Source: Candidatus Forterrea multitransposorum CG_2015-17_Forterrea_25_41
GTDB taxonomy: Archaea > Iainarchaeota > Iainarchaeia > Iainarchaeales > CSSED10-239
Reading direction: 5' to 3'
DNA length: 64,000 nt
Assembly: GCA_009392915.1 (NCBI GenBank)
Contig: CP045477.1
Span: 224,001-288,000, forward strand
The position numbers and the translations under genes were made by a program. The notes beneath the pieces were generated by a model. It saw nothing but the letters and a program-made list of their open reading frames with translations, was not told the DNA's origin and made no database searches. Shown here one piece after another: positions 1,122 to 45,133 of this stretch. Numbering within the stretch: the first letter of the stretch is position 1; each line of letters opens with the position of its first letter.

Positions 1122-1367
1122 ATGCCTAGTAAAAGACAGAAAGGAATGGTTTTAATATCCGTAATTGCAACAGCTTTGTTTGTTTTATCAAATATTTTCT
1201 TTATTACTTTAAGTAGTAATGATTTAAAACAAACAGATATAAGCTATCAAGATAGAATTTCACAATATAAGATGCCTTTTTCAACAGCTCCTTATTGTGG
1301 AGATTTAACTTGTAATTATTCTTACGGAGAAAATCCATTAAATTGTCCTCAAGATTGTTATATGTAG
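1122..1367 (+). CDS. Small Cys-rich membrane/secreted protein, candidate archaeal type IV pilin-like protein (class III signal peptide)
   Basis: The N-terminus MPSKRQKG-MVLISVIATALFVLSNIFFI has a basic n-region, then K-G, then a hydrophobic stretch of about 22 aa. This is the pattern recognised by archaeal prepilin peptidases. The C-terminal part has 5 Cys (CGDLTCNYSYGENPLNCPQDC). Confidence 0.35.
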   Translation: MPSKRQKGMVLISVIATALFVLSNIFFITLSSNDLKQTDISYQDRISQYKMPFSTAPYCGDLTCNYSYGENPLNCPQDCYM

Positions 1368-1483: not shown

Positions 1484-1489
1484 TTAATT

Positions 1490-7550: not shown

Positions 7551-7565
7551 GATTAATTTCTTAAT

Positions 7566-8857: not shown

Positions 8858-9193
8858 ATGAAACTAGAAAAAATTGGTGCATTTGCTTTTCTTGGTGGTA
8901 TCTTAATTTCAATTATTTTTGGACTTATTTACAATATTAACCATCCAGTATGGCTTTCAACTGTTTTAATTATTTTAGGATTAGTTGTTGGTCTTTTAAA
9001 CATTGAAGATAAAAACATATCTCTTTTCTTAATTGCATCCATTACATTTATTGCAACTAGTAACTCAATAAATGCAATACCTGTTATAGGAGATGTATTA
9101 AGAGGAGTTTTAGTTAATTTAGTATACTTTGTAGCTCCAGCTGCATTAGTAGTTTCAATTGTTGCAATTATTAGAGTTTCAAACTCTAAATAA
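8858..9193 (+). CDS. Small polytopic membrane protein (3-4 TM helices)
   Basis: Hydrophobic segments are present throughout. An RBS-like aaggag precedes the ATG. Confidence 0.45.
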   Translation: MKLEKIGAFAFLGGILISIIFGLIYNINHPVWLSTVLIILGLVVGLLNIEDKNISLFLIASITFIATSNSINAIPVIGDVLRGVLVNLVYFVAPAALVVSIVAIIRVSNSK

Positions 9194-9194
9194 T

Positions 9195-9214
9195 TCTTTT
9201 TTTTTCTTTTTTTT
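9195..9214 (+). terminator. Oligo-T tract
   Basis: tctttttttttcttttttttt. Confidence 0.4.
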
Positions 9215-9362
9215 AAATAAAAATACATTTTTTATCTATAAATAATGAATATTTAAATATTTCTATTTATAGTATATTTAAAGTATATATAAAAAACTTT
9301 ATATAGTAATAAATATATAATATTTATATAATATTTATAAATTTATAAATAAAGAAATAAAT

Positions 9363-12300
9363 ATGGTTAAAGATAAAAATAATTTAGGCTCAAATGAAAA
9401 CAATGAAAATAAACAAAATATTTTTTCAAGATTTTATAATTATCTTGAAGATAAATATTCTTCTTTATCAAACTGGCTTACAGAAAAAGGAATACCATTA
9501 AATAATTTAAATAATTATTTAGAGGAAAAAGGACTTCCTGCTTTTGCAATAGTTGCATCTATTTTATTATTATTAATCTTTATAATTGTTTTCTTAATTA
9601 TCTTTTCTTTTTCCAGTCAATCAACATTAATTTTTTCTGTTAAAGATTATTCTGGACTTTCAATCAATGATGCTTTTTTAAAAATTACAAATAGTTCAGG
9701 TAAGGAAATCTTTTCAGGAACTGTAAATGATACTGATGTTAAAAAATTAAAATTAAAATTAGGAGAATTATATTCTTTTAAATCAACTAAAGATGGATAT
9801 CCTGATTTTTCAAAATCAATAACTATTACTGATAAAGATCAAAAAGTACAAATTACTTTTTCAGAATCAATTGAGTATGGTATATTAAGAATAAAATTAA
9901 TAGATAGAGATAATAAAGGAATAATTACTTCAGGAACTGCGATCGCAAGATATTCAATTAATAATGCTCCTGAGTCTACAGAAAACATTGTAAATATTGC
10001 AAATGAACATTTTATTACTTTAGAAGTTCCAATGAATAAAGATATTGAACTTTTAGTTAGTGCAGATGGTTATGAAGATTTTAAAGAAACAAATTTTAGA
10101 ATAACTTTAGAAAATCAAGAAAAAGTAATTGAAATGGATATTTCTTCTTTATCTTTTGAAGGTAAAAGTCAAGTTACTTTTGTTGTTTTAGATACAGAAC
10201 AAAATCCAATTGATGGTGCTTTAGTAAGCATATATAATCTTGGAGATGAATTATTAGATTCAAAAAATACAATTGATGGAAGAGCTTTATCTTTTATTGA
10301 TAGTGGTTCTACAATATCTTATAAAGTTGAAAAAGAAGGTTATAGAACATTTGTAAGTGATCCTGAAGTTTCTTTTAGAATTACAAAATCTGAAATAACT
10401 TATAATGTTACTTTAGAAGAGGGTGGAAATTTTTTAGATGTGTTTGTAAAATCTGGTTCTAATTTTTTAGCTCTTGGAGATGTTGCAATTACTGTTTATG
10501 ATTTAAATAATAATATTATTAATTCTGGAAATACAGATGATTTAGGAAATTTAAAATTAACTGGTCTTTCTGATAAAGCACCAATTGTTGTAACTGCTTG
10601 TAAAGAAGATTTCCTTTGTGAAAATTTAACAGTAGATCTTTTAGAAAAAAGTTCAGTTGAGTTTACTTTAGAAAGAATAGATGTAACAAATAGTGCTATT
10701 CTGTCTGTTTTTGTTGTTGATGAAAAAAATTTACCGATCTCAAAAGCTTTTATAAAAATCTATCAATTACTTGAAGATGATAAAGAAGTTCCATACAACA
10801 CATCTCTTCAAACTGATCTTACAGGTTCTCTTTCAATACCTCTAAGAGTTGGAGATTCTTTTATAGTTTATTCATTAGTTGGAGAAGTTCAATATTTTGA
10901 AGAAATTACAATTGATGCTTTAAGAGAAAATAAAATAATTTTTGTAATGGATAATGCTTCTAAAATAATTAAATTAGATCTTTATGATGAAAATGGTTTT
11001 AAACTTACTTCAGGTTCTTTACTTGTAAAAACAAAAGATGGAACTGTTCTTTTTGATGGTAATTTATCTGAAACTGATCAAATAAGTTTTATTTCAGAAG
11101 GCTATAAAGATTTATATGCTGAATACACAGATGTTAATGGTAATAAATCTTCAATTAATTTTAATGCTGATGAATCTGAGTCAGATGGATATATAAGACT
11201 TGATTTTAATAAAGAAGTTAATTTAACAGATTATCCTGTAATTGAGTTTTCAGGAATTGTAGATTCTAAAGGAGTTAAATCAAATTTTGTAACAATAGGT
11301 AAAGAATATTATTTAATTTTTGATGTTTTATTCCCAGAAAATACTTATAAAGGACAAGTACATATTAGAGCTGGTGATGATACTCAAGTTGATGTTGAAG
11401 AAATGAGTTATGGTATAACTGGTTTTTCTGCAATGGATATTTATGATTTTAAATATGGTACAACATATAATAGTTCTCCTCTTCCAGGTTTAATGAATAT
11501 TGATCTTTTAAATGAAGGTTCTTCTCAAGTTTTAAATAAATGGCTTGAACTTAAATGGAATAGTGATCTTCCTTTAGGTAATAAACAAATCAAAGTAAAA
11601 ATAAATGTTATAGATGATTCTTATTCAAAATTAACTTTTAAATATAGAACTTTATTTGAAGAAAATAAATTATACTATAGAGATCCAGTTGACTCTTTAT
11701 TAAACCAAAGTTATTCTTCATCTCAAAAAGGTGCTTTATATGCAGATACAAAAGAAGTAAATATTGATGTTTATAATGTTCCTTTAGATTGTGAAGGTTC
11801 TCAATGTTTGTCATATACTTTTATTGATTCAAAAGGAAATGAATTTTCAAAAAATGATTTCTATGCTGTAAGAGATGAAACTTATTTTTTAAAAGTTAGT
11901 CTTTATTCTTTAGATAATAAACAATTAGATCTTTTAGCAGAAACTTCAAAAAGTTTCCCTTTAATTTCATTTGGTTCTTTTTCAGATAATCTTTATCAAA
12001 ATGAAATAATAAATGATAATTCTTTATTTGAAATTTCAAGAGATGGTTTTTTACTTTCTGAAAATTCTTTAAAAAATATTTATCTTTCATTTATCTCAAA
12101 AGATATTGGTGCTGCATATATTGATCTTAAAGCAACAGATGTTATTTTAGGAAATGAAATTTTAAACAATAGATTAAGTTTTAATGTTTATGATAAAAAA
12201 GAAATGAATGTTTTAGTTTCTCCAAGTAATTATGTTGATTATGGATCAAATTTTACTGTTGATGTTTTAGATTCAGTTTCTCTTGAACCTATTACAGATG

Positions 12301-15300
12301 CTTTTATTTCTTTTTATGATGTTAGAGATACTTTTATTTCTTCTTTAAAACCAAGTAATTCAAATGGAAGGAATGGAAAATATACTATTACAAATAATTT
12401 TAATACTTCAACTGTTAAAATGGTAGTTGAAAGATATGGTTATCTTCCTTATGAAACTGAAATTTATATTATTGATAATACTTTATTAAATGCAATTCCT
12501 TCAGAAATAATTTTTAATTTAGGTCTTGACCAAACAGCATCAACTTCAAATTTTAGTTTAGAAAACTTAGGTAATTATCAAGCAACAAATGTAAGGTTTG
12601 GAGAACCTATTTGGATTGAAGGTAGTGCTGGTATTTATCTTGAAGGAAGAGGTAATCCAATAATTAATAAAAACTCAACTCAAAATTATCAATTGTTACT
12701 TACAACAGAAAATGATGTTGAACTTAAAACAGCATATGCACATCTTCCAGTATATGCATCTGTAGGTCCTAGAGAAGTTACAAAAATATTAAATGTTAGA
12801 ATAAATAAAGGTTTAATGTTAAATGAATGTGTTGAAATTACTCCTTCTGAAGTTTCTTCTTTTGTTGGACTAAATGTTTCTTCAAATTATGCAGATCCTT
12901 TTAATACTCCTTTTGCAGATTATGATTATACTTCAAATACTTCAAATAATCCTATGCTTGCACCTTCTCAAAGTTATTCTAATTATGAAGAATATTTAAA
13001 TTCAAGTGGATATAACATTACTGATTCAACAGATAATGGTTATACTTACACAGATTCTAAAAATTATACTTATCATGCAACTTCTCCTGCTCTTAATTCT
13101 CAAATTACTGAAAACACAACTTATTTTACAATTAAAAATAATTGTTCTCAAGCTATAACTTTTAATCCTCAAGCAGTTTTAACTTCTTCATCATCAAATA
13201 ATAATTTAGAAGTTTCTCTTGCAAACATAACTGTTCTTCCAGGAGAAGAAAAAGTTTATGATGTTATTTTAAAAAATTCATCTGAACTTAAAAGAAAAAC
13301 AACATATACCTATAATGTTTTATGGCATAATAATTATTATTCAATAGCTCCTTCAGTTTTAAATGTTGATCTTTTAGATTTAAGTAGAGCTTTATGGGTT
13401 ATGCCACAACAAATAAATATTCCAATCTCTCAAGTACATCCTCAACAAGCTGCTGAAAATTATACTAGATTTTTTATTAAAAATATAGGTGCTGTTCCAA
13501 TAACTGATATACAAATAAGTCAGTATCCAAAAATGGTGTCTTCTAATATTAAAATAACTGAATATCCAAGACAAGTATCTGTTTTAGAACCAGGAAAAAC
13601 AATTCCTGTTGATTTAAAATTTTCAGTAAATATTAATAAATCTACATTAGATAATGCCTTTATACAAGTAACTGGTAAAGCTGTTGGTATTAGTGAACCA
13701 ATTACTTCAACAACACAATTAGTGTTTTCAATTTCTTCTCCAAATTGCTTAAAAGTAAGTAATAAAAATATTAATTTTGATTTAGAAGTTGGGGAAACAA
13801 GAGCAAGAAATATTACAATTACAAATCAATGTTCTGAACCTGTTACAATAGTTGGAATTGATAAAAAACAACAAGGATATTATCAAGCATATGGGGATAA
13901 TTCTTTTAGAATAACTCCTGCTTCTGGTAATCCAATAATTCCTGTTAACATGTCAAATTCTTATAGAATAGAGTTTACTGCAAATTCTTTAGGTGGTTCT
14001 CCAAAAACACCAATGATACTTCAAGGTAGATTAATGAATTCAGGTAATCCTGTAACTTCAGAAGAGGTTTTAGTTTCAATAACTATAGATGATATAATGG
14101 TTGGAGAAGAAGCTGAAAGAAATATTTCTATTTTATCTTCTCTTCCTTCTTGTGAAGATCCACAAAATATTAATTCATATAATAGACCATTAATTTCAAT
14201 TAAAGATTGTTCTGAAACTTCAGGATATTGTGATGGAGAATCTTCAGCTGAATTAATTTTAAAAAAAGTAAATGAACTTCAAAATGAAATTAAACAATTT
14301 TCTGCACAAACACAATCAAAAGTAATTGATACTGGTTGTACTCTTCAAGATGCATATAGTGGTTTTTGTAAAATATCTGAACTTGGTGGAGGAATTGATC
14401 CTGTTGAGTTTTCTTTCTTTATGCAAAATGATAATGTTACACCTGATTTAATTAAATCTATTTTAACAAAATCAAATTATTCTTTTAAAAATTATTTTGT
14501 TGAAACAAATATTTTTAATAAAGAAATTAAAACTATAAATCAATATTCTTCTTATGGGGTATATGCTGGTGGAAATAAAATATTTGTATCTCCTCACCTA
14601 TCAGGTTGTGGAAAATATACAGTAGAGATTGATGGTTATGTTGCTGCAAGTCCAGATTATATTTATCCTGAAAGAGCATATTATTATATTAATGTTGTAG
14701 AAAAAGATACTAACACTATTCATTGTGAGAAAAATATTGTAAATTATTTAAATTATCTTCCATGGGATCTTTCTTTTAATAAAAACCAAAGAGCAGGAAC
14801 TTGGCTTACTTTATTTACTGGTGATGAAAATTTATCAAAAGCTTTAATTAAAAGTGTGGGTAAGTTTAAGTCAGATGAAATTGATTTAAGATATGTTTAT
14901 AATAAAGATGTTTTATCTACAAGAAATAGTACTTTAAATGTTTCAACTGGAGAGATTTCTGAAAATAAAGAAGCTCTTGCAAAAATTTCTTTTAATGATA
15001 CTTCTTTAAGAAAAAGCTCTTCTCCAGAACAAATAGATATTACTTTAAATTCTCTTTATAATTCTCCTGAAGGTAAAACTTCTGAGTATGCTGTTAAAGA
15101 TTTTTCAAAAGTAATTTCTTCAATGATTTCAGATAATGATTATTCTGCAAAAGTTTGTATTTCTGAAGATAAAACATATATGCTTGTTTTAGATGTTATT
15201 TCAGCAGGAGATTTAACTTTTGTTGATAAAGAAGTAAGTCTTCCTTTAAAGGATGGAGCTTCATGTTCTTTATTAAAAGTTAAATCATCAGTTCCTGAAA

Positions 15301-17378
15301 CTTTAAAGATTACTTCTGATTCTTTAGAGTTTGCAAATATTGGTTTTAAGAAAAATAAAGATGATACTCTTCAAGAGTCATTAGATATTAGTGTTATTGC
15401 AAATAAAGATTCTAACTTTTATATGTGTGTAACTCCAAATTCAGAGACTGCTATCTCAAGTCTTGTTGATAAAAAAATAACTGTAACAGCAACAAGTATT
15501 TATTCTGCAAGTGGTAGTATTGGAAATAGAAGCACAACTTCAGAAGTAGCTTTCTCTTCATGTGCAATCACACCTGAAGATTATCTTTTAGGTATTTATT
15601 CAAATATTTTAACTGAAAATAATAAAGCTGAAGATGATAGAATCTTACCTCAAAATTATACAGCTATTGTAGATTGGGATAAACAATATAATCCTGAAGA
15701 AAAAGAAAAATTATGTTCAACTTTACAAAAGATTGTAAATAGTAAAAAGTATAATGGAGAACTTTTCTTTGATTATGAAGTTTTAGGTTGTGAGATTGAA
15801 GATTCTTCACAAGAAAGAGATTCAAGAATAAGTAAAGGATTACATAATGCTGGACAATATTTCTTTTCTTGTTCAGGAGCTTGTGGACTTTGTTATGGTC
15901 TTTCAGGACTTATAATGCCTACACAATTTGTAGGTGCAATTGTTGATTGTTTAGGTTTCTCTTGTTTATTACCTTCATTAAATATATTTGCATCAAATCT
16001 ATCTAATGGAGAAGGTGGAATATCTTGGCTTTTAGATGAATTTTTTGGATTATTATTAAATGATGATGTTAGTTTCTTTTCAAATATTACAAGTGAGATT
16101 GAAACATGGGTAAGTGGTGTTTTAGGTGTTGGAGGAGCTGCAACAAGTGGAGCTTTAAAAGCTAATGCTGCTTCTGCTGCTGTACCTTTAGATCAAGTTA
16201 CTCAAGACTTAGTTTCACAATCTAGTTATGATCCTACAACACAACAAATATTAGATGATTTAGCAAATCCATCAACAACACCTGCTCCTGTAAATCCATC
16301 AACAACTTCTGGTGTAATTAATGGTTCTACTGAATTAAAAAATTTAAATAGTCAATTAAATAATTTAAATAGATATTTAAGTGGTAATGACAATATTAAA
16401 TTACAAACATTTTCAAACCCACAAGAAGCAGGTAGATTTAGTGATATCCTTAGAAAAATGAATCAAACATCTGGATCTAACTTTGATAAATTGAGATCTT
16501 TATCTACTCAAGAGTTTGATGATTTTGTAAATATTCTTGAAAAACAAAATTTTACAGGTAAAAATAGTCATTTATTCAAAAAAGACTTACTTATTAAAAG
16601 ATTAAAAGATGCTAAAGTAAATGATTTCAAATCAGTTTCAGCTGCAACTTCTTCAAGTGCAGCAGCTACATCTAGTAGTGCAGCTTCAGTTGCTGATGAT
16701 TTCTATGATTACCCTAAAGCAGATTATGATCAAGCAATTAAAAATTTTGATAATGATATTAAAATGCTTGATGATTCAATAAGTAATCTTGAAAATCAAA
16801 AAGCAGCAATTGAAACTAATGCAAAAAGATCATCTGCAAATCCTAAAAAAGCACTTCGTTATAAATCAAAAGTTGATGCTCAAATAAAAGCAATAGATAG
16901 TCAACTTGATGAACTTAAAAAAAGTAAAGATGCTCTTTCAAGTGTTAAATCTAAATTTGCTTCAGCTAAAAATGTAAATGGTACTTATAAAGTTCCAACT
17001 TCTGCAATTGATGATTTATCAAATAATATTCCAAAACAAGCAAAACTTAGCAAATTATCTAAATTTGCAAAAATTAAAGGTGTTGCAAAAAGCTTTGGAA
17101 GAGGCCTTCTTTGTGGTGCTACAGGAAATGCTGCAGGAATATATTCTTTAAAAGAAGAAGGTAAAACAGGACTTAATAAATCAATAGAGTTTTTAAGTAA
17201 AAATGATTTTGAGAAAAATATATTCTATGTTTCAGAAGTTGATATGTTATCTCCAGAAAATGATCAAGAATACGAAACAAGATATACAATTAATATAAAA
17301 CCTTATATCTCTCAAGATCAAAGTATTATTTCTTCAATTCCTACAAAAAGAATTGATTCTTGTACTATAGAAGAATAA
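9363..17378 (+). CDS. Giant (2671 aa) signal-anchored surface protein: conserved cytoplasmic N-motif, one TM helix, at least 8 CarboxypepD_reg/Ig-like beta-sandwich repeats, Cys-containing modules, and a C-terminal hydrophobic/Ala-Ser-Thr-Pro-rich/coiled-coil tail
   Basis: The N-terminus is ...FYNYLEDKYSSLSNWLTEKGIPLNNLNNYLEEKGLPAFAIVASILLLLIFIIVFLIIF. Repeated about 80-aa modules follow (e.g. VTFVVLDTEQNPIDGALVSIYNLGDELLDSKNTIDGRALSFIDSGSTISYKVEKEGYRTF). There are dozens of NxS/T sequons. The tail carries the PSTTPAPVNPSTTSG linker, SAATSSSAAATSSSAAS and heptad-like segments. Confidence 0.8.
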   Translation: MVKDKNNLGSNENNENKQNIFSRFYNYLEDKYSSLSNWLTEKGIPLNNLNNYLEEKGLPAFAIVASILLLLIFIIVFLIIFSFSSQSTLIFSVKDYSGLSINDAFLKITNSSGKEIFSGTVNDTDVKKLKLKLGELYSFKSTKDGYPDFSKSITITDKDQKVQITFSESIEYGILRIKLIDRDNKGIITSGTAIARYSINNAPESTENIVNIANEHFITLEVPMNKDIELLVSADGYEDFKETNFRITLENQEKVIEMDISSLSFEGKSQVTFVVLDTEQNPIDGALVSIYNLGDELLDSKNTIDGRALSFIDSGSTISYKVEKEGYRTFVSDPEVSFRITKSEITYNVTLEEGGNFLDVFVKSGSNFLALGDVAITVYDLNNNIINSGNTDDLGNLKLTGLSDKAPIVVTACKEDFLCENLTVDLLEKSSVEFTLERIDVTNSAILSVFVVDEKNLPISKAFIKIYQLLEDDKEVPYNTSLQTDLTGSLSIPLRVGDSFIVYSLVGEVQYFEEITIDALRENKIIFVMDNASKIIKLDLYDENGFKLTSGSLLVKTKDGTVLFDGNLSETDQISFISEGYKDLYAEYTDVNGNKSSINFNADESESDGYIRLDFNKEVNLTDYPVIEFSGIVDSKGVKSNFVTIGKEYYLIFDVLFPENTYKGQVHIRAGDDTQVDVEEMSYGITGFSAMDIYDFKYGTTYNSSPLPGLMNIDLLNEGSSQVLNKWLELKWNSDLPLGNKQIKVKINVIDDSYSKLTFKYRTLFEENKLYYRDPVDSLLNQSYSSSQKGALYADTKEVNIDVYNVPLDCEGSQCLSYTFIDSKGNEFSKNDFYAVRDETYFLKVSLYSLDNKQLDLLAETSKSFPLISFGSFSDNLYQNEIINDNSLFEISRDGFLLSENSLKNIYLSFISKDIGAAYIDLKATDVILGNEILNNRLSFNVYDKKEMNVLVSPSNYVDYGSNFTVDVLDSVSLEPITDAFISFYDVRDTFISSLKPSNSNGRNGKYTITNNFNTSTVKMVVERYGYLPYETEIYIIDNTLLNAIPSEIIFNLGLDQTASTSNFSLENLGNYQATNVRFGEPIWIEGSAGIYLEGRGNPIINKNSTQNYQLLLTTENDVELKTAYAHLPVYASVGPREVTKILNVRINKGLMLNECVEITPSEVSSFVGLNVSSNYADPFNTPFADYDYTSNTSNNPMLAPSQSYSNYEEYLNSSGYNITDSTDNGYTYTDSKNYTYHATSPALNSQITENTTYFTIKNNCSQAITFNPQAVLTSSSSNNNLEVSLANITVLPGEEKVYDVILKNSSELKRKTTYTYNVLWHNNYYSIAPSVLNVDLLDLSRALWVMPQQINIPISQVHPQQAAENYTRFFIKNIGAVPITDIQISQYPKMVSSNIKITEYPRQVSVLEPGKTIPVDLKFSVNINKSTLDNAFIQVTGKAVGISEPITSTTQLVFSISSPNCLKVSNKNINFDLEVGETRARNITITNQCSEPVTIVGIDKKQQGYYQAYGDNSFRITPASGNPIIPVNMSNSYRIEFTANSLGGSPKTPMILQGRLMNSGNPVTSEEVLVSITIDDIMVGEEAERNISILSSLPSCEDPQNINSYNRPLISIKDCSETSGYCDGESSAELILKKVNELQNEIKQFSAQTQSKVIDTGCTLQDAYSGFCKISELGGGIDPVEFSFFMQNDNVTPDLIKSILTKSNYSFKNYFVETNIFNKEIKTINQYSSYGVYAGGNKIFVSPHLSGCGKYTVEIDGYVAASPDYIYPERAYYYINVVEKDTNTIHCEKNIVNYLNYLPWDLSFNKNQRAGTWLTLFTGDENLSKALIKSVGKFKSDEIDLRYVYNKDVLSTRNSTLNVSTGEISENKEALAKISFNDTSLRKSSSPEQIDITLNSLYNSPEGKTSEYAVKDFSKVISSMISDNDYSAKVCISEDKTYMLVLDVISAGDLTFVDKEVSLPLKDGASCSLLKVKSSVPETLKITSDSLEFANIGFKKNKDDTLQESLDISVIANKDSNFYMCVTPNSETAISSLVDKKITVTATSIYSASGSIGNRSTTSEVAFSSCAITPEDYLLGIYSNILTENNKAEDDRILPQNYTAIVDWDKQYNPEEKEKLCSTLQKIVNSKKYNGELFFDYEVLGCEIEDSSQERDSRISKGLHNAGQYFFSCSGACGLCYGLSGLIMPTQFVGAIVDCLGFSCLLPSLNIFASNLSNGEGGISWLLDEFFGLLLNDDVSFFSNITSEIETWVSGVLGVGGAATSGALKANAASAAVPLDQVTQDLVSQSSYDPTTQQILDDLANPSTTPAPVNPSTTSGVINGSTELKNLNSQLNNLNRYLSGNDNIKLQTFSNPQEAGRFSDILRKMNQTSGSNFDKLRSLSTQEFDDFVNILEKQNFTGKNSHLFKKDLLIKRLKDAKVNDFKSVSAATSSSAAATSSSAASVADDFYDYPKADYDQAIKNFDNDIKMLDDSISNLENQKAAIETNAKRSSANPKKALRYKSKVDAQIKAIDSQLDELKKSKDALSSVKSKFASAKNVNGTYKVPTSAIDDLSNNIPKQAKLSKLSKFAKIKGVAKSFGRGLLCGATGNAAGIYSLKEEGKTGLNKSIEFLSKNDFEKNIFYVSEVDMLSPENDQEYETRYTINIKPYISQDQSIISSIPTKRIDSCTIEE

Positions 17379-17401
17379 TTCTTTTCTTTTTTTATTTTTT
17401 T
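17379..17401 (+). terminator. Oligo-T tract
   Basis: ttcttttctttttttatttttttag. Confidence 0.35.
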
Positions 17402-17487
17402 AGTAAAAAGAAATATATAAAAATATAAACATCTTATTTATATTAGTTAATATAATATATTAAAGATATAATTGGTGTTATCTAATC

Positions 17488-19167
17488 ATGTTAAGAAATA
17501 AAAAAGGATTTAATTTATTTACTGCTTTAATCTCATTGATGCTTTTATCAATAACTCTAGTTTTTATTTTTAATATGGTTCAAACTGAAGAAAATTATTT
17601 AGAATTAATAAATAATCAATCTCAAGCTTCTGACCTCTTAACAATTGCAGATATTTCAAGAGCTGATGCTTTTAATAATTTTGTTGTTTCTTTTAGAGAA
17701 CAATGGATGTCTTTTAGAAGTGATCCTCGTTCTGAAATCATACTTAAAAGAAAAGATATTATGCTTGATTGGGATGGTTTTGTAGATTATTTTGCAGATT
17801 ATATTTTCTTTGATAATAGTTTTGAAAATTATTTTGCAGATAATATGGTTAGATCTTTAAATTATACAAATCCACCAACAGGTTATGCAATAAATGTTCC
17901 TAATTATTCTCGTGATGATTTATCTAGTATTATTAAAACAGCTTTTCTTGAAGCTGGAGATGATAAAATAAAAGTTGTAAGTTGTGAAAGAGAAGATGAG
18001 GTTTGTTTAGGTACACTTTATTTTACAATTGATACTAGAAAACTTTCTGCACAAGAATATGAAAAACTTCCAATGATAACTGTTAAAAGAAATGTTGATG
18101 ATGAAGTTATTCAAAGACCAGTTTTTGCAAAAAGAGCATACAGGATATATATTCCCTGGAGAGGTTTTCAAGCTTTAAGGACTGTTAGAAATTTTGCACT
18201 TGATGCTGATCTTGAAAAAGGAGAAACAACAGCTCAAATTATTGAATATTCAAAAGATTCAAGAGGTTTTTTAAACCCCTATATTCATTATACTCTCAAT
18301 AGTGCAAAACTTGGTGTTTGTGATATTGATAGTTGTGCTCTAAGAAAAGATTTATTTAAAACTGTTGAGTTTAATGGGTTTACTGGAGATGCATGTTCTA
18401 ATCCGCCTGGAGTTAGTAATGTTTCTGACAATGGAGGAATTACTGGATCTTTTACTGGAGAAGTTTCTCTTTCTAATAATCATAGTTACAATATTCAAGA
18501 TATAGATGGAACTGTAAAACCTATATATAATGATTTAGTTAAAACAACTATAGAAAACAATTTAGAATATAGAACTGATATAATACATGCAGGAAATAAT
18601 TTGCCATCAATCTCTTCTTCTTCAATTTTAGATGATGAATGTCAAATGTCTTTAACAACTGGAAATTTTTCAATATGTGATATACGTGTAAGACTTCCTT
18701 CTCCAAAAGTTACAAAAGAAGTTATTTCTGTAGGAACTGTTTCAGAATCTTTAAGTAGTTTATCTCAAGTTTCATTCAATCCTTCTGGTAGTTTTAATAA
18801 AGCTTCAAACTTAAGTCTCTCTATTGATGATGATTTAAATATTAATGTTTTTGATCAAGAAAGTACTATTCCTAATGAAACTGATAATCAATATCTATCA
18901 TGTACAACAATTGACTATATTGATTTATTATTTAAATTTGAAGAACAAGATGAAAAGTATATTTTTTCTCAAGATTCTAAAAATATTTATATTTTAATTC
19001 AAGATAGATTTTCAGATTATACTTTCTTTAATTCATTTGGAAGCGTTCCTAACTTTAGTGGAGGATATTTTCAAAAAAGAGAACTTCCTTCATTTACAGG
19101 AGGACAAGGTTGGACTTGTAAAAGTTATGAAGCAAATGAAGATGATGCAGCATGTGTTGCAGGTTAA
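17488..19167 (+). CDS. Large type IV pilin-like protein (archaeal class III signal peptide)
   Basis: MLRNKKG-FNLFTALISLMLLSITLVFIFNMV has a basic n-region, G at -1 and F at +1, then a hydrophobic stretch of about 24 aa. This resembles the bacterial GFTLIE pilin N-terminus but lacks E+5, as in archaeal pilins. The C-terminal region has paired Cys (WTCKSYEANEDDAACVAG). Confidence 0.6.
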   Translation: MLRNKKGFNLFTALISLMLLSITLVFIFNMVQTEENYLELINNQSQASDLLTIADISRADAFNNFVVSFREQWMSFRSDPRSEIILKRKDIMLDWDGFVDYFADYIFFDNSFENYFADNMVRSLNYTNPPTGYAINVPNYSRDDLSSIIKTAFLEAGDDKIKVVSCEREDEVCLGTLYFTIDTRKLSAQEYEKLPMITVKRNVDDEVIQRPVFAKRAYRIYIPWRGFQALRTVRNFALDADLEKGETTAQIIEYSKDSRGFLNPYIHYTLNSAKLGVCDIDSCALRKDLFKTVEFNGFTGDACSNPPGVSNVSDNGGITGSFTGEVSLSNNHSYNIQDIDGTVKPIYNDLVKTTIENNLEYRTDIIHAGNNLPSISSSSILDDECQMSLTTGNFSICDIRVRLPSPKVTKEVISVGTVSESLSSLSQVSFNPSGSFNKASNLSLSIDDDLNINVFDQESTIPNETDNQYLSCTTIDYIDLLFKFEEQDEKYIFSQDSKNIYILIQDRFSDYTFFNSFGSVPNFSGGYFQKRELPSFTGGQGWTCKSYEANEDDAACVAG

Positions 19168-19297
19168 ATTCACTTTTTAATGTTAATAAAAAGGTATTTA
19201 AATGTATAAGCACTATAATTATATAACAAATAACATAGTTTTTAAAAGATTATGTTATAAAAATATAATATATTATAATATATACGAGAGATGATTT

Positions 19298-22200
19298 ATG
19301 GGTCTTAGATCTTTTTACTTTAAACAAGAAGAAAAATATTTTAATTTTCTAGACAGGATGGAGAAAAAAGGAATTAATCTATACAAAATAATAGATCCTT
19401 TAGAAAAGAATGGTATACCTACTTTTTTAGTATTTAATATATTTATTCTACTTTTAATTTTATTTTTAGTTTATTTATTTGTTGGACAAACTCCATTAAC
19501 TGATGAAAACTACACTTTAACTTTTGTAAATTCTCAAGACCAGCCAATCTCAAATCAAGCAATTGAAATTCTTCTTAATAACAATAGAAAGATTTTAACA
19601 ACTAATGAATTTGGAATTTCAGAAATTACTGATGTTGAAATTAAATCTTATGATTTAGAAATAAGTAGTGAAAAGTATACTCTTGAAAATCCATTAACTT
19701 TAGATTTTAAAGAAAACACTTCTCATAAAATATTTTTAAAATCAAAAACTTCTGTTTTATCAAAAACTATATATTTTAAAACAAATAATGAATTATATAA
19801 TTCTCCATTAACAATTTCAAATATTTCTTGTTCAAATAATTCTCTTTATACAAAAAATAATCTTCAAACAAATGATGGTTCTTTAACTTTAGATGATATT
19901 CCTACAGATTGTGGATATTTAGAAGTTGCTATTGAATCTTCAACAATTAATGCTGTTGGTTCTTTAGAAGTTTCAGAAGACTCTCCTTCTGGAGATATTG
20001 ATTTAAGTTTTGAAGGTGTTGAAACTGGAAGTGCAAAAATAATTATTCTTGATAAAGATTTAAAAGTGCCTATTCAAAACATAAGTATTTCTATTCTTAA
20101 TAATCAAAGTCAAATTGTAACTTCTTCAATAACAAATGCAAATGGTATAGCATCTTTTGAAGAAATAAATGTTGGAACATATAATCTTTTAATCTATGAT
20201 GAAGAAGAAAGATACAAGCCAGTAACTGAAAATGAAAGTTTAGAACTTGTAGTATATGATTCTGTTTTAGAAGAAAAAGAAGTTCTTTTAGAAAAAGCAT
20301 TCATTGGTAAATTAAATTATAAAATTATTGATACTCAAAGTAAAGAAGCTATTGAAAATGTAGCTGTAACAATATACAAAGGAAATGATATTTTAAAAAC
20401 AATTAATTCAAATAAAGAAGGCGATGTTTCTTTTGGTGTTGAAGAAAATATTTCTTATAAAGTTTTATTTAATCATCCTAATTATATAATAAGAACTGAA
20501 AATAATCAAAGAATAAGTGAATCTATTAAACAAATTGCCTTAACTCCAATAACAAATGAAAATTTAAGAAGTTTAGTTATTACTGTTGTTGATGATTTTG
20601 CAAAACCTGTTGATTTTGCAACCATAAGATTATGGGATGATACTGAAGATATTATTCTTAGAACAATAACAGCTGATATTTATGGTAAAGCTGTTTTTAC
20701 AAATTTAGATTTAGGTAAAGAATATAGACTTGATGCAACTAAAGATCAATTTACTTCAAATCCTACAAATCCTTTTAGAATCTCAGAACAAGAAATAACT
20801 GAAGAAACTATAAAGATGAGTATAGGTGAAGGAACTTTTAATATTAATTTAGTTTCTGAGTATGGAGAGTTCTATCAAGGAAATGTATATGTTTATGATG
20901 CAACAAATGATACTTTAATGCAAGATAAAACCACAACAACAAACCAAGATGGTTTTACAATAATAAAGATTAGAGCTGATAAACAAATTTATTTTGTTAT
21001 TGATAATTTAGATTCTAAATTTATAACTCCAAAGTATTCAACAAATGCAAATGAAATAAATACTTTAAATTTTACAATTCCAGGAACTGTTGGGCAAACA
21101 TCTGGTATTGAATTTTTAGGTTTTTATAATGCTGAAGGAGAAAAAATAAATTCAGTGGCTGCAGGTATGCAAGTTACTGCTAAATATTTATTAAATGTTA
21201 CAAAAGAATATTCTAAAGCAGTTGCACATATAAGAACTGGAGAAGTTCCAAGTCCTTTATGTTCTTCAAACACATATAATGTTTTAGAAGATTTAATTTT
21301 TATAAAAGATGTACGTTATGCAAAATCTGATAAGATCGGTTCATTAACTTTTACTCCATGTAATGGAGAAGGTATTGATTTTTCAAATAAAACTTTAAGA
21401 AATGCAAAATGGTTTAATTTAACTTTAAATAATCCAATGCAAGGAAGTTATTTAATTGAAGCAGATGTTGTTGTTTTAGATACAGCTTTTGCAAATCAAG
21501 CTTTAAACTATAGAGCAGAGTTTTATCAAGGTTCAAGTATTATAAGATCACCTGTTGATTCTTCTTATAGTTCTTCAACAAGTAAACAAAATTTATATGC
21601 TCAAGCAAAACAAGTTCAATTATTTTTAGGAACTCAAAATCAATGTACTTCACTTATGTGTTATGCATTTATTATGACAAATACACAAAATAATTTATCT
21701 AGAAATATAATTGATAGTTATAAAGCTAAATTAAATAATGATTATAGACTTTCATTTAGTTTAAATGTTTTAGATGGAAAAATTGCACCAAACTCAATGC
21801 TTGTAATCTCTTCAGGTAGTTCTGTTGATTTAGATGGTTATTCTATTACTTCAGGAACTGGTTCTCTTTTAGTTGGAGAGGATTATGATGGAATTGATTT
21901 AGGTTCTTTAGTTTCAAATGATTTAATAACTGGAGAGCTTGCTTTTAAAGTAATAGATGATGTTTCTGATGTTTTAGACTTTTCAATAGTTTCTAATGGA
22001 GAAGTTGTATTCTCTAAAAAAATATATCTTGAAATTGATCCTGCAAAAGAAATGTTTGTAGAGTTTGTTCCAAGAAAAATTGTTCCTTTTGTTTCAAATG
22101 ATTTACTTGTTGTTGTAACTGATGATTCTAATAATTTTATTTCAAATGCAATTGTTGAACTTTCAATTAATGATAGAAGTTTAACTGTAGGTTCAACTAA

Positions 22201-25200
22201 TCAAGAAGGATTATTTGGTCATGTAATTCCAGCAACTGATCTTGGAGATGTTTTAAAGATTGTTGTAAAGAAAGATGATTATAAAACAGTTAAAACAGAA
22301 ATTGTAATTGATGATAAATTAATCACAACAATTCCTGAAAAAATTGATTTAACAATTGATTCTTCAAAATCAATAAGAGAAGTTTATAATTTTAGTTTAT
22401 ATAATGAATCTTATGTTCCTTTAACAATTGTTTCTGCATCAGCATTTACTGATAATGAATTTGTTGATCTTGATTTAGGTATTGAAGAAAATATCATAAA
22501 TGGTGTTTCTCAAAATGATATTTCTCTAACAGCAACATTAACAGATAAAGGTATTAATCTTTATAATCAACAAACAATTAATACAGAAGTTGCAATTAAA
22601 ATTAAAAGTGAAGAAATGAATAAAACTTGGGTTATTACAGTTCCATTAACTGTTAGAATAGTTTTAGGAAATTCTCTTGATTCTCTTGAATGTTTAAAAG
22701 TTCTACCTCTTGAAGGAACAATTAGAGCTAAATCTCAAGAAACAAAAACTTTAGATTTTACTTTAGAAAACACTTGTACTTCAAAGAATGTTTCTGTTGA
22801 TTTAGGAACTATTAATGCAATGGTTGATTGGGGTAATGAATCTGAAACTGGACTTTTATCAATTGTTGTTTCTGGTAAAGAATATATTTTAGAAAACTTA
22901 ACTGAAACTGAAATATTATCAACTCTTTTAAAGAAATCAAAAACAACTTTACAATTAAAGTTTAAAGCGCATAAAATAGTTTCAGATGTTAAAATACCAA
23001 TTATTTATTTTACTTCAAAGAAAGGAAATATTAATGGTGTTGATGAAGTTAAAACAAGACTTCCCTTAAAAACAATTATTAATGATTATTCAGAATGTAT
23101 TGAGATCCCAAGAGAGACAATTCCTGCTCTTGCATGTAATTGGTATTCTGGACTTAATAACTATGGTAATTATTATGGTGGAGTAAACCAAGGAGGAGCT
23201 TTCAATAATCCTTATTATGGTGGAAATAATTTTAATGCAACATATAATCCTAATAACCAATTTAATTCTAGAAATTACTATCAACAAGGTTCTGGTTATG
23301 TTACACAACAACAAGGTGTTTTTAATCCAAATTATAATTTAGTGGGACAAACAAATTATACAGGAAATCAAAATTCTGTGTTTAACCCTTATAATTTCCC
23401 TTCCTCACAATATCAAAATACTTTTGGAAATTATGATAGTTATAATTTTACATCAGGTTATCCTCAAGGTAACTATGGAAACATGGGTTTTACAAATAAC
23501 ATGAATTGTCCAACAAGACCATTTTATATTAAAAATAATTGTTCTGAAGCTGTTGATATTAAACTTGATTCAATATATGGTTTAACAATTGCAACAGATA
23601 AAGAATTTACAATAGAACCTGGAGATACAGAAGAGATTAGTGTTTTAGGTGGAGAGTCTATGGGTACTTTTAAAATACCTGTAAATGCAAAAGCATCTCT
23701 TGCATCTAATGAAAATTATTCAACAATTGGAGATGTTTTATTTTCTTTAACATTACCAATTAGTTTTATGTCTTCAAATTGTATACAAGTAACTCCTCAA
23801 AAATTAGATTTTTCAAATATTATTGATCCTAACTATCAACTTGTAAAAGTAATTAATACTTGCTTTGCACAAGGATACAGAATAGTTGAAGTTAATTATC
23901 TTGATTTAATTTCACTTGACTTTGATGGTGTATCTTTCTTAAATGTAGGAGATATGCAAGGAAGAATTCAACCAATTAAAGTTGATACTTTAACAAATAC
24001 AACTACAAATGAACCAATGGAAGTTTGGGAAATTGCATTAAGAAGAAATCCTGAAATTGAAAATACTAAGTCTGTAAAAGAGTATATGAATAAATATTCT
24101 GATTATTCTTTAGCTGCTGGTGTTATTTCTTCATTTAGAAAAATATTAATTGATGTTGAAGACGCAGTTAACTTAAAGTTTTCTTTACAAGTTGGACTTC
24201 AACCACCAACAGGACAAGCTTCACTTATCTATAATAATATAGGTATGGAACTTAAGGATAATTTCCAATGGTTAATTTTAGATAATCCTGATAATATAGG
24301 TCTTTTAAAAGATTTATTTGGTGATGAAGCTATTAGTGATGAAGAAATTTCATTTATTGATACTTCTGTAAAATTAACATATACCCTTGATCCTAATAAC
24401 AATGCAGTTATTATTAATGTTCCTGAAGGAGAACTTGCTGCAGATAAATTCACACAAATTGATCAAGACCCTACAAGTAAAAGATGTTTCTATGGATATG
24501 TTAAAGATTTCCCTATAACTGGTATTGTAGATACTTCATATATACAAAACTCTGGTAAATATTATTTAAATAATAAATATGATCCATTAGATGTAAGTCT
24601 TGAATTTATTACTAGAAATAAAAATATCTTTAAATTATGTTTTGAAAGACCAGTTGAATCATTTGATAATATTTTAGCTACAAATGATAATTACAATATC
24701 TTAGATTTATTTAAAACAAGTAAAGATTCTCTTACAAACCAAAACTTTGAGATTTGGAGAATTTTAGATACTACAAATAAAGGTAAATACCAAGGTAGTA
24801 CTTTAATTGGTGTAAAAGCTGATGTTTCAACAAAAGAAGTTGGCTCTAAAGAAGAGGGTGACTCTGGAAAAACTGATCCTTCTCAAACAACAGATGATTC
24901 TTTAGTTTGTCTTGCTCCTGACCTTTCAACAAATCTTGGACATACAGGTTCTAATGTTTATTCTCAATATGGATTTGATAAAATATTACTTGATTACTTA
25001 CCAGAAGATATTACAGATTCTTCTTGTGAAGATTATTTCTGTGATCAAGAACAATTCTATAATTTCTTAACAAAGAAAGCAGATAAATTAAAAGAAGTTA
25101 CTTCAAATAGTAATTATATAAATATTAATGGTATTTATTTTGAAAAAGAAAATAATACTATTAAAGAATCAAAAGTAAAAGTAGATCTTTGTGCAAACGG

Positions 25201-26269
25201 CGTTTGTGATGGCTTTGATGTTTCTGGTAAAGAAACTTTAAATGATTATATAAATCAAGCAAATAAAGTTTTAAATGCTGTTCCAGCAGACTTAAAGAAA
25301 ATAACAATCATTAAGACTAAAGGTTTAACTACTAATGGAAATAAAATTGTAACAATTGGTGATTATCAATATACAACTGTTGATTATTTCTTAGAAAATT
25401 ATGATTCTTTTGAGAACAAAGCAATAGTTTATGCAAACATGGATGTATACTTTGGATCTTCTCCTCAAGTATTCAGTTCTAACCTTAAGAAATTTTCTGG
25501 TAGTTCTGAAGATTTAAATAAAAAAATCTTAGCAAACTTTAATAATACTTTAACAAGTAACTATACAATTGAGTATGCTGAGGCTGTAAATATTTCAAAA
25601 CCAGGAACTTATACAACAGTTATTTCTCTTGAAAATATAGATTCTCAAAATAAAAGAAAAATAAATTTAACAATAGGTTCTAAAGTTTCTGAGATTAGTG
25701 AAGAATATAGTAAAAATATTTTATTTACATATCCAATTAATCCTGAATATACAATGAAAGAAAAGAGTGATAAATATAATGCTCCTTTCATTAAGAATAA
25801 AAATTATACTTTAATTGATTATCCTTCAGAAATTATACAAGATGGATATATCTTTAAGTTTGAGGATATGGCAAATTATGATTTTATTGATTCAAGACCA
25901 TTTTATTTCAATAAACCATATAGTTTTAAGATTATTGAAACTAATGAAAATAATACAGAGCTTGATTTAATAGAAAATAAAGCAAGTTTATTCTTACTTA
26001 AAGATAGAACAAATAAAAAGATTAGTTTGTATTCAAAACCACAAATTACAAGTCAAGATACAAAGAATAACACTGTCTTTTTAAAAACAACTACTAATAA
26101 TAATTATATGATATATAATTTACAAATGAATAATGTTTTACCAAAATTAACATATTCATCAATGAAAGATGTATTTAATGAAATTAAAAACGAGAATGTA
26201 TGTTTCAATATAACTGAAGGAACAACTCCTGAACTTATGTTGTGGCATAATCCTGAAAAATTTAAATGA
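19298..26269 (+). CDS. Giant (2323 aa) signal-anchored surface protein, paralog of 9363..17378, with an N/Q/Y/G-rich low-complexity insert
   Basis: The N-terminus FYFKQEEKYFNFLDRMEKKGINLYKIIDPLEKNGIPTFLVFNIFILLLILFLVYLF is followed by CarboxypepD_reg-like repeats (e.g. KIIILDKDLKVPIQNISISILNNQSQIVTSSITNANGIASFEEINVGTYNL). It has the shared FLGFYNAEGE module and the shared Cys-motif C..YFCDQEQFYNFL. Confidence 0.8.
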   Translation: MGLRSFYFKQEEKYFNFLDRMEKKGINLYKIIDPLEKNGIPTFLVFNIFILLLILFLVYLFVGQTPLTDENYTLTFVNSQDQPISNQAIEILLNNNRKILTTNEFGISEITDVEIKSYDLEISSEKYTLENPLTLDFKENTSHKIFLKSKTSVLSKTIYFKTNNELYNSPLTISNISCSNNSLYTKNNLQTNDGSLTLDDIPTDCGYLEVAIESSTINAVGSLEVSEDSPSGDIDLSFEGVETGSAKIIILDKDLKVPIQNISISILNNQSQIVTSSITNANGIASFEEINVGTYNLLIYDEEERYKPVTENESLELVVYDSVLEEKEVLLEKAFIGKLNYKIIDTQSKEAIENVAVTIYKGNDILKTINSNKEGDVSFGVEENISYKVLFNHPNYIIRTENNQRISESIKQIALTPITNENLRSLVITVVDDFAKPVDFATIRLWDDTEDIILRTITADIYGKAVFTNLDLGKEYRLDATKDQFTSNPTNPFRISEQEITEETIKMSIGEGTFNINLVSEYGEFYQGNVYVYDATNDTLMQDKTTTTNQDGFTIIKIRADKQIYFVIDNLDSKFITPKYSTNANEINTLNFTIPGTVGQTSGIEFLGFYNAEGEKINSVAAGMQVTAKYLLNVTKEYSKAVAHIRTGEVPSPLCSSNTYNVLEDLIFIKDVRYAKSDKIGSLTFTPCNGEGIDFSNKTLRNAKWFNLTLNNPMQGSYLIEADVVVLDTAFANQALNYRAEFYQGSSIIRSPVDSSYSSSTSKQNLYAQAKQVQLFLGTQNQCTSLMCYAFIMTNTQNNLSRNIIDSYKAKLNNDYRLSFSLNVLDGKIAPNSMLVISSGSSVDLDGYSITSGTGSLLVGEDYDGIDLGSLVSNDLITGELAFKVIDDVSDVLDFSIVSNGEVVFSKKIYLEIDPAKEMFVEFVPRKIVPFVSNDLLVVVTDDSNNFISNAIVELSINDRSLTVGSTNQEGLFGHVIPATDLGDVLKIVVKKDDYKTVKTEIVIDDKLITTIPEKIDLTIDSSKSIREVYNFSLYNESYVPLTIVSASAFTDNEFVDLDLGIEENIINGVSQNDISLTATLTDKGINLYNQQTINTEVAIKIKSEEMNKTWVITVPLTVRIVLGNSLDSLECLKVLPLEGTIRAKSQETKTLDFTLENTCTSKNVSVDLGTINAMVDWGNESETGLLSIVVSGKEYILENLTETEILSTLLKKSKTTLQLKFKAHKIVSDVKIPIIYFTSKKGNINGVDEVKTRLPLKTIINDYSECIEIPRETIPALACNWYSGLNNYGNYYGGVNQGGAFNNPYYGGNNFNATYNPNNQFNSRNYYQQGSGYVTQQQGVFNPNYNLVGQTNYTGNQNSVFNPYNFPSSQYQNTFGNYDSYNFTSGYPQGNYGNMGFTNNMNCPTRPFYIKNNCSEAVDIKLDSIYGLTIATDKEFTIEPGDTEEISVLGGESMGTFKIPVNAKASLASNENYSTIGDVLFSLTLPISFMSSNCIQVTPQKLDFSNIIDPNYQLVKVINTCFAQGYRIVEVNYLDLISLDFDGVSFLNVGDMQGRIQPIKVDTLTNTTTNEPMEVWEIALRRNPEIENTKSVKEYMNKYSDYSLAAGVISSFRKILIDVEDAVNLKFSLQVGLQPPTGQASLIYNNIGMELKDNFQWLILDNPDNIGLLKDLFGDEAISDEEISFIDTSVKLTYTLDPNNNAVIINVPEGELAADKFTQIDQDPTSKRCFYGYVKDFPITGIVDTSYIQNSGKYYLNNKYDPLDVSLEFITRNKNIFKLCFERPVESFDNILATNDNYNILDLFKTSKDSLTNQNFEIWRILDTTNKGKYQGSTLIGVKADVSTKEVGSKEEGDSGKTDPSQTTDDSLVCLAPDLSTNLGHTGSNVYSQYGFDKILLDYLPEDITDSSCEDYFCDQEQFYNFLTKKADKLKEVTSNSNYININGIYFEKENNTIKESKVKVDLCANGVCDGFDVSGKETLNDYINQANKVLNAVPADLKKITIIKTKGLTTNGNKIVTIGDYQYTTVDYFLENYDSFENKAIVYANMDVYFGSSPQVFSSNLKKFSGSSEDLNKKILANFNNTLTSNYTIEYAEAVNISKPGTYTTVISLENIDSQNKRKINLTIGSKVSEISEEYSKNILFTYPINPEYTMKEKSDKYNAPFIKNKNYTLIDYPSEIIQDGYIFKFEDMANYDFIDSRPFYFNKPYSFKIIETNENNTELDLIENKASLFLLKDRTNKKISLYSKPQITSQDTKNNTVFLKTTTNNNYMIYNLQMNNVLPKLTYSSMKDVFNEIKNENVCFNITEGTTPELMLWHNPEKFK

Positions 26270-26296
26270 TTTTTATAAACTAAGAGGTTATGAAAT

Positions 26297-31900: not shown

Positions 31901-31937
31901 TTAATTTTTATATTAAAAATAAAAGGTGTAAAAAAAT

Positions 31938-34832: not shown

Positions 34833-34847
34833 AAGAGGGATTAATTA

Positions 34848-42248: not shown

Positions 42249-42321
42249 AAGTAATATATATAAATATATTGCTTAACTATATTTTATAGGTTTAATATAT
42301 ATATATTAGGTTAGTATAATT

Positions 42322-42684
42322 ATGAGAAGATACATTTATTTATTTTTAATCGTTTTCTTAGTTTTTCCATTTATTTCTGCACTTAGTTATGATAATGAAA
42401 TCTATGTAAACCCTTTTGTTTTTGGTGTAATTAGAGGGGATGATGGGGAAGTTATTTCAAATATTTCTGATGATGAAATAATAGATCCTGAAATGCAAGT
42501 TTCAAGTGCAAATGGGTTTACTAAAAAATCAGATCTTGATTTAACCATAAGAGAGAATCTTTTGATTTTTAAACTTCCTTCTTATCAAAAAACAAATAAT
42601 AATTCTTTAAATAAATATACTTTTATTTATAATACCTTTGATTATCCTTCAAAGAATGTAAATATTTTATTTAAATTAAATTGA
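42322..42684 (+). CDS. Small secreted protein (signal peptide)
   Basis: MRRYIYLFLIVFLVFPFISALS is a signal peptide. The stop overlaps the next gene's start (ATGA). Confidence 0.4.
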   Translation: MRRYIYLFLIVFLVFPFISALSYDNEIYVNPFVFGVIRGDDGEVISNISDDEIIDPEMQVSSANGFTKKSDLDLTIRENLLIFKLPSYQKTNNNSLNKYTFIYNTFDYPSKNVNILFKLN

Positions 42685-45110: not shown

Positions 45111-45133
45111 TTTAAAAAAAGAGAAGAAAGAAT

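Follow-up and report, generated by a model that had tools for sequence, protein, structure and literature searches.

The gene at 17488..19167 (+) of a 64,000-nucleotide stretch of the genome of Candidatus Forterrea multitransposorum, a tiny archaeon of the DPANN phylum Iainarchaeota (contig CP045477.1, positions 224,001 to 288,000; hereafter the window), probably encodes a type IV pilin-like protein that a class III signal peptidase recognizes as substrate and that assists, as an accessory subunit, the giant surface proteins whose genes flank it on both sides. Its family carries a conserved cleavage-type motif and shares a phylum-wide synteny with the giants; in many lineages the giant-protein array adjoins a type IV filament (TFF) locus, and a TFF ATPase is encoded on the window's own contig. 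The open reading frame (ORF) begins with an ATG, 11-14 nt downstream of a Shine-Dalgarno-like GGTG, and its translation of 559 amino acids (aa) opens MLRNKKGFNLFTALISLMLLSITLVFIFNMVQTEE. The window has a GC content of about 25%, its genes all lie on the + strand, and its alanyl-tRNA synthetase exceeds the archaeal equivalog cutoff (TIGR03683), in keeping with an archaeal host.

The 22 close homologues of the protein are all unnamed. A genome scan with the motif as its pattern located the family in 74 genomes at species level, nearly all labelled Iainarchaeota or Diapherotrites; among them are Ca. Iainarchaeum andersonii and AR10, whose genome is complete (CP010424.1). In the closest relative, the metagenome-assembled genome (MAG) JAQVRT01, the pilin-like protein is 86% identical. 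Complete giant/pilin-like arrays also occur in MAGs labelled Falkowbacteria, Chloroflexota and Thaumarchaeota (loci L030, L031, L034 and L035), labels that are most likely binning errors.

Predicted class III-type signal and extracellular body

Class III signal peptidases recognize a glycine or alanine at -1 and a basic residue at -2 ahead of a long uncharged helix; a plain membrane anchor would not require this rule. The family has both hallmarks of such substrates, namely a short basic leader ending in [KR][GA] before a hydrophobic segment, and some 20 uncharged residues after the predicted site. Cleavage between G7 and F8 is accordingly a prediction from the N-terminal sequence. A rule scan in the style of FlaFind and PilFind ([KR][GA], then 20 hydrophobic uncharged residues) over the 286 Met-start ORF candidates of the window matched four of them: the pilin-like gene, an 81-aa ORF discussed below, a polytopic membrane protein at 51959 and, in antisense, an ORF of 48 aa. 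The family as a whole was then judged by an unbiased motif test, in which a profile starting at residue 28, with the motif excluded, was run against 1.84 billion representative proteins. This retrieved 186 clusters, of which 150 were listed; the N-terminus was evaluable in 124, the remaining 26 being fragments or proteins whose starts were called at an internal Met. Among these 124 representatives, the -1 residue is G (85) or A (39) and never any other, the -2 residue is K or R in 118, and the leader ranges from 4 to 7 residues, with 5 the commonest length. Positions +1 to +22 are charge-free in 118 representatives, with a mean Kyte-Doolittle value of 2.2. Two further regularities, F at +1 in every representative and T (111) or S (13) but never E at +5, are partly imposed by the pattern used to anchor the site.

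Within the close family of 22 homologues, K-G|F-x-L-F-T-A-L is invariant despite overall identities down to 33%, and the family's N-terminal helix begins with a near-invariant F-[TN]-L-F-T-A-L. At the family level, the class III-type motif is far beyond chance. The invariance of the motif in 72 genome loci was discarded as circular, the motif itself having been the scan pattern. No small-x-small site for signal peptidase I follows the hydrophobic stretch of the protein (…IFNMVQTEE). Searches of Pfam and NCBIfam with the protein and the family profile assigned no family, and the sole recurrent matches, all sub-threshold, are to models of bacterial pilin N-termini: ComGF in 17 of 21 members and N_methyl in six of 21, with ComGE, ComGC and ComGD also appearing. 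The ComGF matches score 16-20 bits, far short of the cutoff of 80; the window protein itself reaches 16. Variants of the family that read KG|FT pass the strict FlaFind expression.

The remainder of the protein has the character of a large extracellular body. C166 and C173 are present in all 118 aligned members, C278, C283, C303, C472 and C556 each in about 100 or more, and R225 is invariant across the alignment. The number of cysteines is even in 107 of 117 members, which together with their conservation fits a fully disulfide-bonded extracellular protein. The C544/C556 pair is invariant in the close family, and across the wide family 89 of 117 members have a C-terminal pair. In distant members conservation is limited to residues ~4-300, and family lengths range from 360 to 670 aa. 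An AlphaFold2 (AF2) model of the protein has a single helix over residues 10-77. A first-pass annotation made from the window's letters had described a prepilin-type N-terminus, a class III signal, a +5 position without an acidic residue and a C-terminal Cys pair, and these four points are supported by the scan, the 124 representatives and the alignments.

Giant arrays and type IV filament loci

The pilin-like gene lies between the first two members of a 42-kb array (9363..51577) of five giant ORFs, which encode proteins of 1867-2671 aa and all run in the + direction (Table 1). Oligo-T tracts follow the stop codons of giant 1 and of the pilin-like gene. Every giant comprises a cytoplasmic N-terminal stretch, one transmembrane (TM) helix and CarboxypepD_reg or immunoglobulin (Ig)-like domains. 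Clustering of all ORFs from the 74 loci recovered the pilin-like family in 72 of them and its co-occurrence with giants in 71, usually in the order giant (2.4-3.1 thousand aa), pilin-like gene, giant (2.3-2.8 thousand aa), giant. This order of giant and pilin-like genes persists at 33% identity. The functional tie to the flanking giants, first proposed from position in the window, thereby gains support across the phylum. No further family was consistently linked to the pilin-like gene among the ORF clusters of the 74 loci; two families do recur 5′ of giant 1, an exosortase-like gene and, at the edge of the flank, a T2SSE ATPase.

The first of these encodes a membrane protein of ~190 aa of the exosortase/archaeosortase family (TIGR04178, 39 bits against a cutoff of 23) and stands directly 5′ of giant 1 in at least 11 loci. 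It is not found near the array in the window. Two of its copies lie between the TFF ATPase and giant 1, at 8028-8516 (-) in L081 and 8367-8930 (-) in L082. Exosortases act on C-terminal TM sorting signals; neither the pilin-like protein, which ends in W-x-C...C, nor any giant has a C-terminal sorting signal or TM helix, and the idea that any of them is an archaeosortase substrate was rejected on this ground.

The second family is the secretion ATPase of a TFF locus (PF00437, 62.8 bits against a cutoff of 24.9; TadA and FlaI are the best NCBIfam models), ~760 aa long and 56-61% identical across Diapherotrites. In L081 and in Ca. I. andersonii (L082), the array and the TFF locus are transcribed divergently. 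The array side consists of the giant, the exosortase-like gene plus one or two small genes; the TFF side has the ATPase followed by a protein of 720-790 aa and by six or seven proteins of 150-270 aa that have archaeal class III N-termini of the K-G-Q type. The 720-790-aa protein is a candidate platform, with a T2SSF match that is reproducible in three orthologues though sub-threshold (20-21 bits against 25.2). A second sample was anchored on the ATPase, using a metagenome DNA-pattern scan for its motif; among the matches listed, none of them on the window's contig, 38 loci had at least 3 kb upstream, and of these 22 had the exosortase-like gene adjacent and 15 the N-terminal module of a giant. 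L097 has the full set, pilin-like gene included. The genomic association with the TFF ATPase and candidate platform is thus seen in L081, L082, L097 and others; in the window, the array is not adjacent to such genes. An independent study reports genes for type IV pili in both AR10 and Ca. I. andersonii (PMC8561730).

In at least seven loci (L147, L165, L167, L180, L182, L186 and L195; for example 80-1060 (-) in L167), the interval from the exosortase-like gene to giant 1 encodes a member of a second pilin-like family, ~280-340 aa long, whose N-terminus reads [KR]G|F[SN]LFTPLVGT. It shares only the N-terminal helix with the family of the window protein (hhalign probability 32%). Some Iainarchaeota TFF ATPases carry intein and LAGLIDADG domains (PF14890, PF14528) and reach ~1260-1290 aa, being intein-interrupted; these include P0340 and P0350 and the genes at L118 5567-9430, L149 1737-5555, L190 4984-8760 and L200 1657-5433.

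What does the window's own genome hold of this machinery? The first-pass annotation had noted that the window lacks a pilus ATPase, platform and prepilin peptidase, and none was found there or in the 10 kb on either side. The ATPase of JAQVRT01 (P0290) shares a 90% cluster with P0355, which is encoded at 1-19,230 of the window's contig, Ga0100381_1000002 (663,621 bp); the window genome's ATPase is 770 aa long, has intact Walker A and B motifs and lies ~400 kb from the array. JAQVRT01 and a 671-kb relative each carry both the ATPase and the pilin-like gene, and low-GC Iainarchaeota keep the ATPase but without an adjoining array. A search for a prepilin peptidase found none in ~2.3 Mb of related loci.

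Two side observations concern these genomes. Candidates with a GxGD motif were rejected as prepilin peptidases, all being of the presenilin/signal peptide peptidase (SPP) type (PF06550). In low-GC Iainarchaeota, the gene for such an intramembrane protease (57-69 bits) lies 4-6 kb away from that of the TFF ATPase, at L106 3439-4320 (-), L153 3115-4104 (-), L176 8955-9842 (+) and L201 4218-5069 (-); SPP-type enzymes cleave type II TM segments, the topology of the giants. In addition, the same contig of ~663-665 kb recurs in dozens of samples (L204-L209; L005, L006) and always breaks a few kb beyond the region of the ATPase and an S-layer gene, which suggests a near-complete genome of ~0.66-0.84 Mb with one repeat-limited assembly gap.

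Weighing the readings

If the protein is indeed a pilin-like class III substrate serving the giants, its preprotein would insert in the membrane with the seven-residue basic leader in the cytoplasm, a prepilin-type peptidase would cut between G7 and F8, and the new N-terminal helix (FNLFTAL...) would be handled by a TFF machine composed of a FlaI/TadA-like ATPase and a platform protein. The protein may then occupy the tip of a short filament or its priming position, or else remain as a membrane-proximal stub. From there its disulfide-bonded body of ~530 residues would bind or organise the neighbouring giant adhesins, coupling them to the filament or the cell surface. We infer incorporation into a filament and direct binding to the giants, as well as the fibre, tip or anchor role that the first-pass annotation had proposed; the overall interpretation of that annotation is supported by our results.

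Several observations weigh against this interpretation. At the N-terminus, the window's own KG|FN fails the strict FlaFind expression at +2 (N), the matches to pilin models remain below their cutoffs (best E = 2e-4 for ComGF and 0.12 for N_methyl, PF07963), and the archaeal Class_IIIsignal model (PF04021) has no match in the family. At the level of the fold, a Foldseek search of the full-length AF2 model against the PDB returned no match, and a domain-only model (residues 28-300) matched only unrelated helical or membrane proteins, which weakens the argument for a pilin fold; PDB searches with the protein and the family profile likewise matched no solved structure, solved pilins included. The pilin fold, in which alpha-1 would pack on an antiparallel beta-sheet, is therefore an unconfirmed, putative assignment. 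Comparison of the family with the adjacent K-G-Q pilins by hmmsearch and hhalign detected no homology beyond the hydrophobic helix. As for the machinery, the ATPase of the window's clade stands alone, with no platform or pilin genes adjoining it, so that a complete machine is not demonstrated in the window genome, and Peptidase_A24 (PF01478) was not found in the window, the 10-kb flanks or the related loci.

The main rival draws on several of these points. It holds that the protein is an uncleaved signal anchor of type II topology whose helix pairs with the TM helices of the giants, for example as a chaperone or organiser, with neither peptidase nor filament involved. The prepilin peptidase missing from the window, its flanks and ~2.3 Mb of related loci is what it would lead one to expect, as are the inconclusive fold evidence and an array that, in the window's clade, is not beside any TFF gene; the highly conserved juxtamembrane module of the single-pass giants could moreover be the docking partner. 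However, a signal anchor leaves unexplained why -1 is restricted to G or A and -2 to K or R behind a constant leader of 4-7 residues, why the arrays recurrently adjoin TFF loci, and why a second family with a [KR]G|F-x-L-F-T start should occur in the same neighbourhood. We consider it unlikely.

Far less probable is a thick novel pilus built from this protein as its major, filament-forming pilin, with no relation between it and the neighbouring giants. The class III-type N-terminus and the long N-terminal helix would suit such a role, but known major pilins are small, and the six or seven small K-G-Q pilins of the adjacent TFF loci are better candidates for it; a C-terminal half as variable as that of this family (360-670 aa overall) is atypical for a subunit of a helical lattice, and linkage to giants in 71 of 74 loci is too tight for coincidence. 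Least credible of all is that signal peptidase I trims an ordinary Sec-secreted protein here, or that the exosortase/archaeosortase-like enzyme takes the protein as its substrate: the basic n-region, the hydrophobic stretch and the TIGR04178 gene directly 5′ of giant 1 in at least 11 genomes invite the idea, but the stretch of ~22 residues exceeds a Sec h-region and lacks a small-x-small site after it, conservation falls at the start of the hydrophobic segment and not at its end, a C-terminal TM sorting signal is found in neither the protein nor the giants, and the motif is kept in the window region despite there being no exosortase-like gene nearby.

Window features, known systems and biological meaning

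The features of the window that bear on the pilin-like gene are collected in Table 1.

Table 1. Positions of the pilin-like gene, its predicted parts and the accompanying array in the 64,000-nucleotide window
Feature	Position	Strand	Remarks
Pilin-like protein, 559 aa	17488..19167	+	Iainarchaeota-specific family; deposited solely as 'hypothetical protein'; no Pfam family
Predicted class III leader MLRNKKG	17488..17508	+	predicted cut after G7, between 17508 and 17509
Hydrophobic N-terminal helix of predicted mature protein, F8..N29, FNLFTALISLMLLSITLVFIFN	17509..17574	+	most conserved part of the family
Extracellular disulfide-rich body	17575..19164	+	conserved N-domain to ~residue 300; C-terminal half variable
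81-aa candidate, RQKG|MVLISVIATALFVL plus one CGDxxC...ENxxxCPxDC module	1122..1367	+	passes FlaFind expression; no physical link to array
Four-TM membrane protein, 111 aa	8858..9193	+	directly 5′ of giant 1; same place in the window's clade (L007, L008, L020, L021)
Giant 1, 2671 aa	9363..17378	+	conserved cytoplasmic N-terminal module, one TM helix, huge extracellular part; adjoins pilin-like gene upstream; position kept phylum-wide
Giant 2, 2323 aa	19298..26269	+	adjoins pilin-like gene downstream; CarboxypepD_reg/Ig-like domains
Giant 3, 1867 aa	26297..31900	+	third giant after giant 2 in most loci
964-aa protein with Sec-type signal, within array	31938..34832	+	no family assigned
Giant 4, 2466 aa	34848..42248	+	
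Two Sec-signal proteins within array: 120 aa; 809 aa, Cys/Gly-rich	42322..45110	+	
Giant 5, 2147 aa	45134..51577	+	TM helix after 180-aa Lys-rich N-terminal region

The giants have features of their own that merit description. A conserved cytoplasmic module of ~40 aa precedes the single TM helix in all of them and in ~70 related loci, with the consensus ..LEDKYYxxLDWLDxKG[IL]P[VL]Y..[IL]Ex[KR](G/N)[IL]P[SAT]FP, in which the 'KG-I-P' motif is duplicated; in the window it lies at 9363-9640, 19298-19500, 26297-26480, 34848-35020 and 45134-45770. The final KG-I-P copy of giant 1 has the formal pattern [KR]G|[IL]P[AS]F, which resembles a class III site preceded by a leader of 40-90 aa. The module could act as a signal that targets the giants to a dedicated machine. 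The first giant of a distant lineage (L003 648-9938, ERZ2635437 NODE_2, 440,806 bp; 3096 aa) bears an NlpC/P60 peptidoglycan-endopeptidase domain, a hint that some giants attack bacterial cell walls. In Ca. I. andersonii and a relative, the genomes of L056 and L057, an opposite-strand gene of 367 aa lies between the pilin-like gene and giant 2 (3333-4439 (-) and 11113-12216 (-), respectively); its ...RYG[AS]DEFTF... motif resembles that of GGDEF diguanylate cyclases.

The 81-aa ORF that the first-pass annotation had offered as a second small pilin exists as described and passes the FlaFind expression. Its 90% cluster has five members, all 'hypothetical protein', and related loci encode larger secreted proteins with several copies of its Cys module, such as a 305-aa protein of L033. 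It may be a small membrane-anchored member of a Cys-repeat family rather than a pilin. Elsewhere in the window, 52508-52777 encodes a bacterial-type HU/IHF DNA-binding protein in this archaeal genome (NCBIfam HU-alpha, E = 5e-25, under the equivalog cutoff).

Pilin-like class III substrates in a TFF context are already known, and three comparisons are instructive. First, the N-terminus of the family recalls bacterial pilins and competence pseudopilins (ComGC-GG; N_methyl G|FTLIE) in its F-T-L-[F/I] mature start and its short basic leader ending in G. Unlike bacterial type IV pilins, the family has T or S and never E at +5, its host is an archaeon, and the pilins encoded nearby belong to the archaeal K-G-Q type.

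Second, the protein is reminiscent of the GspK/XcpX family, minor pseudopilins at the tip in bacterial type II secretion and type IV pili, in its large size, the lack of an acidic +5 and its helical insertions, an analogy only, there being no sequence or profile homology to GspK/T2SSK in the protein. At 559 aa next to K-G-Q pilins of 150-270 aa, it shows the GspK signature of size and missing Glu5, which is non-discriminating in archaea, whose pilins generally lack Glu5. Its extracellular part is about twice that of GspK, and its gene sits among those of giant adhesins instead of closing a minor-pilin operon. GspK-type pseudopilins are themselves large class III substrates, and their size and missing Glu5 restrict them to the tip of the filament (PMC5207764). 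Together with the binding proteins of the bindosome described below, they provide precedents for a mature part of more than 500 aa; the first-pass annotation was fair in calling that size unusual for a pilin, yet such substrates are precedented.

Third, a recent survey describes archaeal TFF loci that encode large adhesin-like proteins, namely 'system 2' and subsystems 4A, 4B and 4G, without mention of Iainarchaeota or of this family (Sivabalasarma & Albers, 2026, preprint, 10.64898/2026.04.22.720090). Shared with those loci are an ATPase with an extended N-terminal region, one platform gene, here a candidate, several pilins of class III and large adhesin-like proteins rich in Ig domains. The Iainarchaeota loci differ in the size of their adhesin-like proteins, 2,300-3,100 aa, and in the arrays of three to five that these form. 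The giants also possess a conserved cytoplasmic N-terminal module of their own and are interleaved with a dedicated F+1 pilin-like protein, and in the window's clade array and TFF genes have become separated. The same survey covers the Sulfolobales bindosome, in which large non-pilin binding proteins carry a class III signal and are Bas-assembled (10.64898/2026.04.22.720090). Unlike those, the window protein has no detected solute-binding domain and no ATP-binding cassette (ABC) transporter nearby, and its partners are giant surface proteins. What is new, then, is the family itself, its bacterial-looking Phe+1 N-terminus in an archaeon, its strict interleaving with giant arrays and the associated exosortase-like gene.

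A broader idea, possible though doubtful, is that the pilin-like protein, the KG-I-P giants, the exosortase-like enzyme and the FlaI/TadA-like ATPase together form an unrecognised, TFF-derived apparatus of the Iainarchaeota that exports, mounts or extends adhesins or cell-wall hydrolases of 2,000-3,000 residues instead of building a pilus. Such an apparatus would serve the attachment of an ultra-small archaeon to other cells, or its attack on them, and would be an archaeal analogue of the pseudopilus of the type II secretion system or of a tip-adhesin initiation complex, with the F+1 protein as the adaptor between cargo and filament core.

DPANN archaea are thought to live attached to other cells; to our knowledge, the attachment machinery of most of their lineages is unknown, and the Iainarchaeota have no cultured member. 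Against this background, a phylum-wide, unannotated module of giants and a dedicated pilin-like protein, often joined to a TFF locus, is a testable candidate for a cell-contact apparatus, and [KR][GA]|F-[TN]-L-F-T-A-L followed by the conserved N-domain offers a marker for it in metagenomes. As a probable class III substrate, the protein would extend the range of such substrates in archaea to a large, disulfide-rich protein with Phe at +1, and if the giants are handled via the TFF machine, this would represent a new use of the type IV filament superfamily.

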